Source: Escherichia coli (lineage in GTDB: Bacteria > Pseudomonadota > Gammaproteobacteria > Enterobacterales > Enterobacteriaceae). Taken from it: a DNA stretch of 64,000 bases. Of this stretch, positions 18,001 through 33,000 are shown one piece after another. Position numbers: made by a program. Each line of letters starts with the position of its first letter. Position 1 is the first letter of the stretch. The stretch is taken from assembly GCF_003991155.1 (NCBI RefSeq), contig NZ_CP031297.1; one strand, 5' to 3'.

Positions 18001-21000
18001 AAAGTCATCAGTTGGCGATTCCTGGTCAAATAAGCGCTTTCACAAGCCGGTAGGCCTCGATGTATTGCTGGCCTGTACTGCGAGTAAGGTGCCTGAACAT
18101 CTGGTCGAAGAACTGAAAAGACGGGGCAGTTGATGCGTCTTTGAGCTTTGCACCCGAAAAGGGCAGTTTGAGCGTTCCTGTTCACACAGCTCTCGTGGAA
18201 CAATCAAAGTGAGGAGGGAATACCCTCCCACTTTCTCAGAGGCCTTCATTGAGGGTTGCTGAGAAAGTGAATTTTGTCCTCTCTGAGGGCGAAACGTGCG
18301 ATAGCTGGTCGCCAAAAACAAACAGCATTCAACCTCAGCCTAAGGGCGCACTGCGCCTGACAGGCTCTGTGTGCCCAAGTTACTTTAAGGAGCACACATG
18401 TCTCATCTGAACAATCTCAAATCCGTAATGATCTCTCTCGCCGCCGAACATAAGCTGCCTGAAATCTACCAGGATGACATCACTACCGATGTGGAGTCTC
18501 TGGATCGATTCGATGGTTTACGTCTGGTCTGGCTGTTGCGGTCTTGCGGCAGCGTATTGGTGCCAGCGGAAGTTGGCGTTAATCCGATCTATATCACCCA
18601 TTGGTTGTGGTCTAACCACGGTCAACAGGTGGTTCCATTCTCTGTGGATACCCGCACGGGGTTGATTGAAAAAATCGACTTCGAGCAAGCTGAAAAGCTG
18701 ATCATGCAGATGCCTTGCAACCTCTCTTCATTGCAGAACAAGGAATACTTGGTTGACCAGGTAAACCGAGTATTGCAACGAGGTTGTGAAATGCGTATCT
18801 GGGGTATCTTCGAGTCTCCAAGCTCGGTGGAATCCGTTGGTGGTTGGAAAGAGTGGCAGAGCTATTTCAGCTCTACTGGGAATCGACTGATGGCCGATTT
18901 CGTTGGTAAAGCCATTCGATTCACCAACCCTCGATAAATCGCCGTTCAACCATTAACCCTAATTAACCCTATGGGGCTCCGATAGCCCTGAGGGGACGGG
19001 GCTCCGCAATCGCAATAAGGAGTCCCTATGAAAAACCTATCAGCTTTGGAAGCAGTTCTTGACTACGACAAACCTTCTCGACGTTTTCTTGATGAGCTCA
19101 ACGAAAACCAGATGAAGGATTTGTCCGGGGAAATCTTCGCCAAGCTCTACTGGAGCAAGCGTAATCCCCAGTGGTACGAGAAAGACACCAATCGGCTGTT
19201 TGCACGACTTCGTTGGGTTCAGCGCATCATCAAGAAGCGCTTGAAAACCGGCAAGGTTAAACCTGAACTGACAGAAAATGGTTCAGTGATGGAGCGCTTC
19301 AACTTCCCTTATGGTGACACTCTCGATTTCTTCCATCGGTACTTGCGACATCCCAAATGGGAGGTTGTGTATCAAGAATCGGGGTGCAGTGCCTTTTGGA
19401 AAAATGAAGCAACGCTTGAGCTATGCACCTACTGCGAAGGTGATGTGGTCATGATGAAGGCTCCTGATGAAGCAACCTTCTTTCGTGATTGCAATCGCCT
19501 TAGCTGGTGGTATGCAGATAACGCTTGATCTTAATCCCTAACCAGGGGCGAACCGGCCCCTGATGGGAGCATGGTGCGCCCCATCTATGATGGAGGACGC
19601 CATGTTCAAATCATCAGTATGCTCCTACGAAAACAGGGGGCCTTACGGAAACAACAAGTACCGAGGCAACTGCTCGGGCTTTATCGTTAAAGACTTCATT
19701 GAGTCTTACATGAGAAAGCCGAACGGGCTGGTGGCAGACCCAAGTGTTGGGGGTGGCTCTAGCATCGACGTTGCCAATGAACTTGGTGTCCGTTTCAAAG
19801 GGACAGACTTGCATCAGGGGTTCAACCTGTTGCGGGATGACTTCCTTTCGTTCCTCGGAGAGCCTGCACACCTGATCTGGTGGCACCCTCCTTACTGGGA
19901 CATGATCCAGTATTCAGGTAAGCAGTGGGGCGAGCCCAACAAATGGGATATGAGCCGCATGAATTTGCCTGAGTTCGTTGAAGCCCTTGAGCTGGCCGTT
20001 ATGAATATTCATGACGCCTGTGAGCGAGGAGGGCATTACGGAATCCTCATGGGAAACCTGAGGCGCGATGGGGATTATTTCAACCTGTCCAGCCTTGTGG
20101 AACGTATCGCACCTGGGAAGCTGGTGGATGAGATCATCAAAACACAGCACAACTGTGTGAGTGACCGAACTCAGTATTCCGGGAAGCTGGTGCGTATCGC
20201 CCATGAAAAGCTGTTGGTGTTTCGTCGTAACGACGTTGCCTCATCGCTCTGTCTTCTTGCTGCCGTACACCGTCGAGCAACCAATATGGTTTCGACTACG
20301 TGGAAAGCTGCAATACGCCGAACCCTACAGGGGAAAACGTTGAAGCTGGAGCAGATTTACAAAGAGATTGAACCCTACGCAAAGCATCGAGAGAACAACC
20401 ACTGGCAAGCAAAGGTCAGGCAAGTTCTTCAAGATGCCAGGTTCTTTATTCGCATCGAGGTAGGTGTCTATGCACTTGCTGAGTAGCCCAACCGGGGCGT
20501 GACATCCCGGAGGGGATTGGTCGCGCTCATCAACAACAAAGGAGCGTGACCATGAACGTACAACTTCAAGCCAGCAACAATGTGCTGTTGGCGCAAATCG
20601 AAAGCAAAGGCCTCACTGTTGAAACGCATTGTCGCAGTGGCTTTTGTGGCATGTGCCGGGTTCGTCTACTCGAAGGTCAAGTGGCTTATGACGAGACGCC
20701 CATCGCATTTGTCAAAGAAGGGGAAGTGTTGGTTTGCTGCGCTAAAGCAAAAACCGATGTGACCTTGGAAATTTAACCCATCCGGAGGAGCCTTTCCTGC
20801 GGGTGGGGCTCCTCTATCCATTACGAGGAGAAACACTATGTCTATCAATACCAAAGTTGAACAAATCGCATACGGTCATGCTACCGCTCTAGTGCTCAGT
20901 GAACTGGGCCAACAAGAGAATTGGTGCAAGGCTTATGAGTATTTGTCTGAGTGTGTAGAACGGGGAGACGAACCTGAGGATCTGGTCGTTTGGCAACCGT

Positions 21001-30000: not shown

Positions 30001-33000
30001 TAATTCAAATTTCGGCTTTCTAGCTCTGGCCTTGCGCCAACGCCTGATCAAACGCTGGTCACTGATGCACTCTGTTCAACCGGAGTCTGTGTTGGAACAC
30101 AGCGCTGTTGTTACCCTGCTTTCCTACCTGGCTGGCAATATTGCCATTCAGCAAGGGAAGTCGGTGGATCTGGCAGTCATGCTTGCTCATGCTTCGTTGC
30201 ATGATGCAGCCGAGGTTCTCTGTTCGGATGTTGTAACACCGGTCAAGAAAGCAAACGCTGTTTTGCAGCGTGAGTTTGAACGACTGGAAAAGGCCGCAGA
30301 GGACAAACTCATCCAGACTCTTCCCGAAGAACTCCAGGATGCAGTCGCCATAGCCTTCGCTCCCGGTGGCTATGAACAATCACTGGTTAAGGCCTGTGAT
30401 ACCTACTCCGCTTACATCAAGTGCAAACTTGAGGTGGCCGCAGGTAATGGCCTTGAGTTCCAGGATGCTCTCAGCAAAATGGAACGTGTTGTTGCTCAGG
30501 TGAAATCGGACTTCCCGGAAATCGACGCTCTGGACAAATGGTTTGGTAACGGACTCGGCCATTCAGTAGATAAACTGCTGGCAGGGGGTAACGATGACTA
30601 ATCCAATCCCTGGCGACATCAAGATTAAGGACTTTGGCCGCGACCGGAAATTCCGTTCGGTTGATGAGCTTCAAAGCACTTTGTCAGAACAGTACAAAGG
30701 TCAGCATGTCAGCATCGTTTACCCTGCAAAGCCCAGCGGTTTACTCCGCACGGTTTTTGTCAGTGTCGATGATGCTGGTGGCGTGAATCGAACCTATGGG
30801 GACCAGTCTCCTGTCGATTTTTCTGCCATCAAAGATGACCTGTATGTACCAAGTGACCTGTAGGAGAGCACTAGCTATGGTGGTGATCATCGTAAACACA
30901 GGACACTATGAGTTTATCGGCCTTGGTGAGACCCACGGACAAGCCACAGAAGGGCTTTTGAAACGCTGGGACGAACACTGCGAACGTAATCCGGATGCTG
31001 AGTCTGGTTACATGCAGGAGCTGATAGAAGAAGGAAGCGCACAAGTTGTCGAGATGGAGCCCGGCTCCGCCGTAATTTACGGACTTGACGGCTAAGCCTT
31101 CTCAACTAACCCACTCGGGCGCATCATCCCGAGAGGGTGTGGTGCGTCCTAACCAAAAGGAATGCACTATGTCTAACTTTGAACAAGCTCTGGAGCGTAC
31201 TGACGGTAAAACACTGATTCTCAGCAATGGGAGTAAGTGGGCAGGCCAAGACCCGGACAGTATTCAGACTTTACTGGATGTCCTGGGTGACAACGTTCTT
31301 GACCCGATGTTTGAGCAGTATCACTGTTATCGCCCATACCCGTTTGAACCAATGGTGAGGACGGGGCGAAATGGCGAAATGTTCCAGCCTTGGCTTGGGG
31401 CAGCCTGCTTCTTTGGGAACTTCCTGACTGTCTCTCATGTTTTCAACATCATCACGAAAGATGACGGTGTTGTTGAGGCCTTAACAGAGGCGATCCGGAA
31501 GAATATGGCGACTGAACAGTACCAGCAGAATGCCTATGAGCGTTATGCCGGTTGGTTCTACGCTGAAACCAGCGAAGGGTTAAGGCTAGTCTCTCCAAGT
31601 GAGGCTGCCGACATCCGAGCTGGCGCAGTTTCAAAGCTGCGTTACCCAAGAAACTTCGAGGTTATGAAAACTGCGGTTCTCAAAGGTCCTCGATTTGATA
31701 CTGAATTAAGCCGCAAGGCTTCTTAACCCAAACATTAACCCCACGGGGGACATCGGTCCCTGAGGGGATGGTGTCTCCCTCTGAAATTAAGGAGATACCA
31801 ATGATTAAACAGCATTTTCAAAACGAACTGGTTAAGTGTGGATACCCGGATGATCTGACGATTGAGTACAGTCTCGGATACTGCCAGGGGGATGGCGTAG
31901 CCTTCTACGGGGATTTGAGCGTTGATGACGTCAAAGCTCTCATGAATCGCCTATTCAGCACTGAGCCCGGCCAAGTGGATGCTGTCAGCCGCGTGAAGAA
32001 CCTGATGGCACAGAAAGACATTGAGAATATGCTTTCTGTCCTCCGCGAATATGGTTCCTGTGACCTGTCCATTACTCGGAATAGTCACGGGCATCACTAC
32101 AGCCATTGGAACTGCATGAACATCGACGACAACGTGGACTTCACAGGGATCTTCCCTGATGATGATTCCATGATTGGCACCGGCATTGAAGGGATTAACC
32201 AGGATATGGTCGAGCGCTGGCAAGACCTCTGGGAACGCTTTGTGCTGGAGCTGGCGGATGATGTAAAAAGTCTTTCCAAGAAGCTCGAAGCGGACGGGTA
32301 CTCGCTGATCGAGGCCTCTCCATGCGAAGATGAAGTGGTTTGGGAACGGGCCACTGAAAACTACCTGGTGCGTGTTACTGAACTCCCTGAGCGGGATTTC
32401 GATATGGGCCACTGGGATGACGAAGTAAGAGACCAAACAATTTGTTCTATCCTGGAAGGGAAAGAGCGAGTGCTTGGCCTACGTGTTGAGGTACTCTCTC
32501 GTGAAAACGAGATTGTCCTGGGTGAAGAGAGTCTGCACGGCTTGACCGTTGCCAGTGATGACAAGAGCTACGCTGGCTACAGACGAGAACTTCTCCGGGG
32601 AGCTATCCAGCAAACCAGGGACTTTTTCTCTCGCCACCTCAAAGCGGCATAACAAGGCAGGGGGAAACCCCTGCTTTACTTCCCAAGTCTTCTTACTCAT
32701 GGTGAATACCATCAGTAAGCAGATTTTGTTCTCTTCGGAGAGCGAAAAGTGCGATAGCTGGTCGCCAAAAACAAACAGCAAATTAACGTTAATTTATTAA
32801 TCCCTGCGGGAGTCTATCTCCTGCTGGAGATACCTCCCGTTATTTCTGGAAGTATCCATGAACAAATTCCAAGACTTTAAGTTGGTTTATCGTCAAGGTG
32901 GTCGTCGCTTAGAGCGTGTCTTTACGGACACTCTTTACGCGAATGTGAAGCGTGTCGCTGACTCGTTTCCTCCGACCGTTCTTTGGCGCATTCAGCCAGC

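Follow-up and report, generated by a model that had tools for sequence, protein, structure and literature searches.

Does an 11-kb stretch of conjugative-plasmid DNA that carries two methyltransferases, a ferredoxin, a DndC-like protein and an HD-domain hydrolase encode a single DNA-modification pathway, or have functionally separate genes come under common control? The five genes lie in a 64,000-nucleotide stretch of the Escherichia coli contig NZ_CP031297.1 (assembly GCF_003991155.1; "the window"), and a sequence-only reading had taken them as one set that pre-emptively modifies plasmid DNA, with the ferredoxin serving the DndC-like enzyme. Our analysis instead favors separation—the best overall explanation is probably a block of the IncC backbone that is induced by the activator AcaCD, transcribed as two units, and composed of three separate modules.

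Identity and gene content of the block

The 11-kb stretch is the vcrx098-vcrx115 part of the IncC backbone, directly downstream of the published hde operon. Between 19 and 31 kb of the window, it matches the backbone of over 600 IncC (IncA/C2) plasmids in PLSDB at 100% identity, and the same genes are listed in the annotated reference plasmid pSH111_166. Names and coordinates follow the pVCR94 gene table (Carraro et al. 2014, PMC4207636), which fits the window to within 15 bp; by this mapping, dcm3 is vcrx100, yfaE is vcrx101, dcm1 is vcrx109, the DndC-like gene is vcrx113, and the HD gene is vcrx115. All five open reading frames (ORFs) lie on the + strand at the positions first proposed for them and carry the motifs claimed. 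The features on which the argument depends are as follows (ChIP-exo, chromatin immunoprecipitation with exonuclease digestion).

17753..17782, + strand: intrinsic-terminator-like hairpin, 13-bp stem then T-run; closes the upstream hde/DUF3150/VWA unit
18147..18176, + strand: AcaCD box of P_vcrx098, TTTGCACCCGAAAAGGGCAGTTTGAGCGTT; matches the published ChIP-exo motif, pVCR94 75267-75295
18398..18937, + strand: vcrx098, leads AcaCD-driven unit 1; without Pfam domain; coordinates per the pVCR94 table
19563..20486, + strand: dcm3 (vcrx100), N6A/N4C-type methyltransferase with HPPY motif IV and a weak C-terminal DpnI_C-like winged helix
20546..20776, + strand: vcrx101 (yfaE), YfaE-type 2Fe-2S ferredoxin
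23614..25239, + strand: dcm1 (vcrx109), orphan C5 cytosine methyltransferase with N- and C-terminal extensions
26592..26978, + strand: vcrx112, small ORF immediately 5' of vcrx113
27066..29519, + strand: vcrx113, standalone DndC-related enzyme, 817 aa
29518..29550, + strand: intrinsic terminator overlapping the vcrx113 stop codon; 12-bp stem, UUCG loop, U-run
29548..29577, + strand: AcaCD box of P_vcrx114, TTTGCACCCCAAAAGGGCAATTACAGCGTT; matches the published ChIP-exo motif, pVCR94 86650-86678
29721..29924, + strand: vcrx114, leads the second AcaCD-driven unit
29996..30601, + strand: vcrx115 (yfbR), YfbR-type HD-domain 5'-deoxynucleotidase

Neither a nuclease nor a DndA, DndB, DndD or DndE domain was detectable in the ~25 other ORFs of the block (all searched with Pfam, a subset with PADLOC and NCBIfam), and the proposed absence of a cognate nuclease and of Dnd partners therefore stands. 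Two of the starts have alternatives: that of dcm3 is ambiguous among 19563, 19587 and 19602, and the yfaE frame, ending at 20776, may begin at 20546 or 20552.

Two probable AcaCD-driven transcription units

AcaCD is the plasmid's master activator of conjugation, and published RNA sequencing places the five genes among its targets, with increases of ~100- to 1000-fold (PMC4207636). Expression in the wild type, in a delta-acaCD mutant and with added AcaCD was 422, 1 and 1288 for vcrx100; 501, 4 and 2677 for vcrx109; 298, 6 and 979 for vcrx113; and 1178, 50 and 6412 for vcrx115, while vcrx098 rose from 3 without AcaCD to 8357 with it (PMC4207636). The two AcaCD boxes of the window share a 30-bp motif, TTTGCACCCSAAAAGGGCA...AGCGTT, and the only two matches to the box core in the whole 64 kb (0.14 expected) are these boxes. 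The ChIP-exo motifs reported for this region likewise lie upstream of vcrx098 and vcrx114 only (PMC4207636 supplementary tables), and transcription from the vcrx114 promoter starts at pVCR94 86713-15 (PMC4207636). From the boxes seen here and the expression values of PMC4207636, all five genes belong to the AcaCD conjugation regulon.

Between the two boxes, the terminator at 29518-29550 has a predicted free energy of -21.6 kcal/mol (z = -5.0), and a hairpin scan found no strong + strand terminator between 18.2 and 29.5 kb; a strong hairpin at 33510-33530 closes the unit that follows the second box. Because there are two boxes, a terminator between the units and no strong terminator within the first, we infer two AcaCD-driven units—one running from vcrx098 to vcrx113 and including dcm3, yfaE and dcm1, the other comprising vcrx114, yfbR and downstream genes. 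Matches to sigma-70-like promoters were strongly depleted on both strands across 17700-33600 (1 found, versus 11.9 ± 3.5 in shuffled sequence), which fits a block that is silent unless AcaCD is present.

The five genes do not travel as a set outside IncC

The idea of one pathway assigns each gene a part: the YfaE-like ferredoxin would supply electrons or repair an Fe-S cluster, and the HD hydrolase would clear by-products of a pre-emptive modification. It accords with the induction of all five genes by AcaCD, with the probable presence of four of them on one transcript, with the 4Fe-4S cluster that DndC needs (PMC10853773), and with a block that contains no nuclease or Dnd partner. The distribution of the genes, their arrangement and the affiliations of two of their products argue against it, and we regard it as very unlikely.

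Our non-IncC sample consisted of 27 loci with Vcrx113 homologues (28-59% identity), drawn from IncHI2-type plasmids, a MOBH group in Kluyvera and Morganella, Vibrio/Photobacterium islands, and betaproteobacterial replicons; 31 window proteins were compared by tblastn with 28 loci, each taken with ±10 kb. Within ±10 kb, the ferredoxin, the HD hydrolase and both methyltransferases were without homologues in all 27 non-IncC loci, and the only match beside Vcrx113 was a weak one, to a small ORF. Clustering of the flanking ORFs from the 28 loci turned up lineage-specific neighbors but none conserved across clades, and annotated examples proved to be long arrays of small same-strand hypothetical genes. 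A conserved five-gene module was accordingly rejected, none being found outside IncC in the comparison of 31 proteins with 28 loci.

Counts across PLSDB are similarly discordant. Relatives of Vcrx113 occur on 2,643 of 72,556 plasmids (~3.6%), of which 2,069 are conjugative and 1,877 carry relatives below 60% identity, whereas YfaE relatives occur on 1,454 plasmids (the non-IncC ones mostly from Klebsiella), dcm1-type relatives on 890, and YfbR relatives on 832, 770 of these IncC-grade. A YfbR relative is missing from about 1,800 plasmids that carry distant relatives of Vcrx113. The pAQU-type plasmid pVP7-1 retains a syntenic block in which dcm3 (76%), yfaE (49%) and yfbR (79%) are intact, whereas only 59 aa are left of vcrx113, and of dcm1 only the C-terminal 129 aa, its catalytic domain being lost. 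This pattern of retention, together with the discordant counts, indicates that the ferredoxin and the HD hydrolase are independent of the DndC-like protein. Within IncC itself, yfaE lies 6.3 kb and 12 ORFs away from vcrx113, and yfbR sits behind the terminator in a separate transcription unit. The proposal that the ferredoxin serves the DndC-like enzyme is not supported either, since the two do not co-occur outside IncC and YfaE is an equivalog of a host protein of deoxynucleoside triphosphate (dNTP) metabolism. We thus see the five genes as co-regulated but functionally separate, forming at least three independent modules.

One further locus, on a JGI metagenome contig (Ga0502372_002980, 1749-9755; L034), combines a homologue of vcrx111/DUF4121, a dcm1-type C5 methylase and a member of the DndC-like clade. 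The methylase is 34% identical to Dcm1, aligns from residue 1 with the N-terminal extension included, and lies 4 kb upstream of the DndC-like gene, whose product is 27% identical to Vcrx113. The trio may be a relic of ancient synteny, or dcm1 and vcrx113 may be loosely linked in function. An obligatory pair was rejected, given 890 versus 2,643 plasmids and no dcm1-type gene near the IncHI2, Vibrio, Kluyvera or Pseudomonas homologues.

In pVP7-1, a vcrx112 homologue (L033 15212-15859; NZ_CP150866 60211-60858) is followed by an annotated tusA sulfur-carrier gene. It has no counterpart in the IncC window and could be the remnant of a sulfur relay feeding the DndC-like enzyme.

Orphan methyltransferases

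The assignment of the first methyltransferase to the N6A/N4C type, with an unusual HPPYW motif, is consistent with the profile search. Dcm3 matches Pfam N6_N4_Mtase (PF01555) at 33.6 bits (cut-off 26.7), the match being limited to the part that binds S-adenosylmethionine, and 'WWHPPYW' is found at residue 108 of the long ORF; motif IV thus reads HPPY, with His replacing D/N/S, and is kept in the 76%-identical pAQU homologue. The name dcm3 implies cytosine specificity, yet the domain is of the N6A/N4C type. At the C-terminus (residues 254-293, window 20322-20441) there is a weak likeness to the DpnI winged helix (PF17726, 21.6 bits versus a cut-off of 23), and Roy et al. 2020 (PMC7498323) give PF06044 for this gene.

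Dcm1 matches PF00145 at 101.3 bits (cut-off 22) over profile positions 4-322 of 324, with the catalytic motifs PC at 206 and ENV at 251. The match spans aa 127-441 of 541 and leaves ~126 aa at the N-terminus and ~100 aa at the C-terminus, so that the extensions first described for this C5 methyltransferase are real.

That methylation helps the plasmid to evade recipient restriction is a plausible idea and had been published for the genes in question: Wang et al. 2019 (PMC6555945) named dcm1 and dcm3, Roy et al. 2020 (PMC7498323) took them up in their discussion, and the window protein has the accession of the published Dcm1 (WP_000201432.1). As the first module, the orphan enzymes Dcm3 and Dcm1 would methylate plasmid and host DNA, leading to fewer cuts by the restriction enzymes of new hosts. 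Published evidence on whether they are essential conflicts—a triple dcm deletion abolished transferability, and the methylases were termed a mobile modification barrier (PMC6555945), whereas transposon-insertion sequencing (TnSeq) in pVCR94 did not show dcm1 and dcm3 to be essential for entry into V. cholerae O395 (PMC7498323). The closest parallels are the orphan methyltransferases of conjugative plasmids (M.EcoGIX of pESBL; the leading-region methylases of Samuel et al. 2024), which are likewise nuclease-less, expressed at transfer and proposed to protect incoming DNA. By contrast, dcm1 and dcm3 lie mid-backbone under AcaCD control, with no leading-region position demonstrated: the block falls at ~75-88 kb in pVCR94 numbering, far from vcrx001/oriT (figure legend).

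YfaE and YfbR

Both small proteins were correctly recognized at the outset, as a YfaE-like 2Fe-2S ferredoxin and as an HD phosphohydrolase of the 5'-deoxynucleotidase type, and both reach equivalog level. Vcrx101 scores 93.3 bits against the YfaE equivalog NF007985 (cut-off 75), contains a Fer2 Pfam domain, matches plant-type ferredoxin structures, and has the four cysteines for a 2Fe-2S cluster at 29, 34, 37 and 64/65. Vcrx115 scores 128.5 bits against the YfbR equivalog NF003009 (cut-off 122), matches PF12917, and aligns with the E. coli YfbR structure 2paq (E = 1.6e-26), including EHS at 34 and HD at 69; the HD metal-binding residues are kept. Because the similarity is at equivalog level, it points to roles in deoxynucleotide metabolism, as counterparts of the host's dNTP-metabolism proteins. 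As a second module, the two would adjust the supply of deoxynucleotides while DNA synthesis surges at transfer and establishment: going by equivalog-level homology, YfaE would maintain the cofactor of ribonucleotide reductase and YfbR would dephosphorylate deoxynucleoside monophosphates.

Solitary yfaE genes are common on plasmids (~750 plasmids with below 60% identity), and we considered whether plasmid yfaE travels with nrdAB. In pKOX_R1, a non-IncC MOBH plasmid of Klebsiella (L032, NC_018107 record 252128-264349), yfaE stands alone among small hypothetical genes, 4 kb from a site-specific methyltransferase; no ribonucleotide reductase lies near it in this, the sole non-IncC context inspected.

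Vcrx113 is a distinct DndC-related enzyme

Vcrx113 carries SGKDS at residue 74 and CGARFGCWAC at 298, and the DndC models of NCBIfam and PADLOC match it at E ~1e-35 to 1e-41. Across 42 homologues, S73, K76, D77 and S78 of the PP-loop are invariant and G75 nearly so (it is invariant in a 27-sequence set), as are, nearly, C173, C285, C298, C304 and C307; these cysteines align with the RxC, GEC and CG-RFGCWxC motifs of two bona fide DndC proteins (P0100 and P0101). In the same alignment Vcrx113 keeps the cysteine pair that is DndC-specific according to Rakesh et al. 2024 (PMC10853773) and a 2026 BREX survey (PMC12839542). It nevertheless falls far below the curated DndC cut-offs (TIGR03183, 119.9 versus 290.4 bits; PRK06850, 140.8 versus 536), and no Vcrx113-type gene had a DndD or DndE neighbor in the 28 loci examined. 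A control pair showed the same division: the genes that follow P0100, a true DndC, are of the DndD and DndE types, while the clade member P0099 lies in a mobile-element array without them. Vcrx113 thus belongs to a distinct DndC-related clade, DndC-like in its catalytic residues but set apart by family score and by the missing DndD/E operon.

Similarity to DndC extends to about aa 440-464, and the protein divides into a PP-loop/4Fe-4S DndC-like module (aa ~20-440), a clade-specific alpha+beta domain (~441-620) and a basic helical tail (~621-817). The sequence-only reading was right about the DndC/PAPS-reductase-like part (PAPS, phosphoadenosine phosphosulfate) but overstated the rest, which it put at ~490 aa of unknown sequence and which amounts to ~350-375 aa. 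Its remark that the function of this protein in IncC is undefined agrees with the searchable literature: no paper turned up that deals with the DndC-like protein of IncC, or with orphan DndC homologues of plasmids in general.

The AlphaFold model, of high confidence (predicted local distance difference test score 87.7), has the adenine-nucleotide alpha-hydrolase fold (PF01507/CysH-like), with matches to PAPS and adenosine phosphosulfate (APS) reductases, flavin adenine dinucleotide (FAD) synthase, CysD, and the 4Fe-4S sulfurtransferases TtuA, NcsA and LarE. Such folds might suggest that Vcrx113 acts on tRNA or a small molecule—in thiolation, sulfate assimilation or cofactor synthesis—as a metabolic accessory gene, since the closest solved structures are PAPS/APS reductases, FAD synthase, CysD and the tRNA thiolases TtuA and NcsA, and PHROGs files phage relatives under auxiliary metabolic genes. 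We consider this highly improbable, because the similarity is specific to DndC (E ~1e-41) and not to CysH, CysD or TtuA (E 0.0035 or no match), the DndC cysteine pair is kept, and the gene is transfer-induced and sits in mobile-element arrays on conjugative plasmids, with Vcrx113-type genes near orphan methylases in three context types. The product name 'phosphoadenosine phosphosulfate reductase' is misleading for this family.

Residues 441-620 had no match in Pfam, PHROGs or PDB profiles. A profile of this middle domain retrieved 218 representatives among 1.84 billion proteins, and in nearly all full-length proteins (560-885 aa) it sits at about positions 370-640; the ten distant members tested all had a DndC-like module in front, and all scored below the DndC cut-off. 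The domain is therefore found in one architecture only, behind a DndC-like module. It is acidic (isoelectric point, pI, 5.3) and matched no DNA-binding fold, and the last ~200 residues of the protein form long, poorly conserved helices with a pI of 9.4.

In one IncHI2-like lineage of Enterobacter hormaechei plasmids of ~285-370 kb (L017-L022; H43-H47), the Vcrx113 homologue is split or truncated: residues ~302-746 are encoded alone, under the label 'hypothetical protein', and one genome has the first ~300 residues on a different contig. The catalytic half would, judging from these sequences, be dispensable or disrupted in this lineage. Three 600-aa homologues (P0093-P0095) are without most of the PP-loop domain.

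Candidate roles of Vcrx113

As the third module, Vcrx113 would be a PP-loop ATP pyrophosphatase whose DndC-type cysteines provide for a 4Fe-4S cluster and for a pair that carries persulfide. Most likely it would take sulfur from the host IscS and use ATP for DndC-type sulfur chemistry on plasmid DNA or, alternatively, interfere with phosphorothioate-based immunity of the recipient (Dnd, Ssp, BREX type 4). We put forward this pair of roles tentatively, as possible but short of probable, and regard Vcrx113 as a reasonable candidate for anti-defense or DNA modification. This proposal gains support from a phage precedent, a PAPS reductase that helps phage to escape the Dnd system of the host (Piel et al. 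2022, cited by PMC13551039), and is weakened by the missing P-loop nucleoside triphosphatase (NTPase) neighbor discussed below. By that description, the phage enzyme would resemble Vcrx113 in being DndC/SspD-like, alone on a mobile element and linked to counter-defense. The phage proteins in BFVD differ from the 817-aa Vcrx113 in being ~250-360 aa long and matching the PP-loop domain only.

A more specific version, which we find rather doubtful, has Vcrx113 as a single-polypeptide enzyme for DNA sulfur modification or against phosphorothioate immunity, its own domain replacing DndD/DndE. IncC, IncHI2 and other large conjugative plasmids would then deploy it at transfer against Dnd, Ssp or BREX type 4, or it would write a backbone or base mark not yet described. 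A self-sufficient phosphorothioate writer, by which plasmid DNA would be seen as self in Dnd- or Ssp-bearing recipients, is more improbable still. The full DndC motif set with the DndC-specific cysteine pair (PMC10853773, PMC12839542), the basic tail, induction at conjugation and the precedent of anti-Dnd phage PAPS reductases speak for it, but every characterized phosphorothioate system needs a DNA-recognition partner and a P-loop NTPase, the latter encoded next to known writers (PMC12914056). To this are added the sub-cut-off DndC score, the acidic middle domain without a DNA-binding fold match, and the absence of any report of phosphorothioate from IncC hosts in the searchable literature.

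Vcrx113 can be compared with two characterized families. With DndC/DptC (TIGR03183), the sulfurtransferase of DndABCDE, it shares SGKDS, RxC(S/T), GEC and C-G-x-RFGCWxC over ~400 aa; it differs in that the clade-specific domain and helical tail stand in place of the final ~80 DndC model positions, in being borne on conjugative plasmids, in scoring below the cut-off, and in never standing beside DndD, DndE, DndA or DndB in the loci examined. With SspD/BrxP (Ssp, BREX type 4) it shares the form of a DndC-related PP-loop enzyme with extra C-terminal modules (PMC12839542). Those enzymes, however, do not have the cysteine pair of DndC, and DUF4007/SspB and an ATPase are joined to them by fusion or as partners (PMC12839542), whereas Vcrx113 keeps the pair and has neither a DUF4007 match nor an ATPase partner. 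The adjacent hde operon (vcrx087-093; Roy et al. 2020, PMC7498323) provides both anti-type-I restriction and Bet/Exo repair of CRISPR cuts; it has its strand and the AcaCD regulon in common with the block and acts when the plasmid enters a new host. Its functions are demonstrated, whereas no phenotype has been published for vcrx101, vcrx113 or vcrx115.

Several observations weigh against our preferred explanation of three AcaCD-induced modules in two units. A joint function would likewise be compatible with co-induction and with a transcript that four of the five genes probably share, and that transcription from P_vcrx098 reaches vcrx113 as a single transcript is itself inferred from the terminator pattern. 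The co-occurrence test detects sequence homologues within ±10 kb only, and the plasmid-level counts were compared by totals and genus. The L034 methylase near a DndC-like gene, together with the joint decay of both genes in pAQU, would fit a link between dcm1 and vcrx113. The roles suggested for YfaE and YfbR derive from homology, and IncC plasmids are not known to carry a ribonucleotide reductase of their own. Vcrx113 loci show no conserved P-loop NTPase neighbor, which weakens the phosphorothioate-writer interpretation in particular. Nor was this region picked out when entry of pVCR94 into V. cholerae O395 was examined by TnSeq (PMC7498323).

Implications

Most of the five-gene set is known IncC backbone, and the lead that emerges from it is the Vcrx113 clade, which is widespread on conjugative plasmids of clinical importance. 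IncC and IncHI2 plasmids rank among the principal vehicles of carbapenemase, extended-spectrum beta-lactamase and mcr genes, and their broad host range is only partly explained; dcm1 and dcm3, with the neighboring hde operon, already account for some evasion of restriction and CRISPR. Vcrx113 is conserved, induced at conjugation, intact in its DndC catalytic residues and represented by relatives on 2,643 plasmids, with no function found in the literature. If it did modify DNA or disarm phosphorothioate-based immunity, it would represent a new class of plasmid anti-defense, and no DndC-type enzyme before it would have been shown to function in the absence of DndD/E. In annotation, the five genes should be treated as separate and not as a single system.

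Neighboring regions of the window

Upstream of the block, window positions 14578-17736 follow the hde operon and encode a DUF3150 protein and a 598-aa protein with CobT-N and VWA domains joined by a long Q/N/G/D-rich linker. The hde anti-restriction gene vcrx089, upstream of these, encodes a CbbQ/MoxR-type AAA ATPase. Because CbbQ/MoxR-type AAA ATPases usually work with a VWA partner, vcrx095 may belong to the anti-restriction function of vcrx089. Downstream, a toprim primase gene occupies 33579-35402, after which the backbone ends, in the annotated reference, at IS5075 and Tn3-family transposase genes. From ~36000 to 64000 the GC content jumps between 37% and 68%, as expected of an inserted resistance island.

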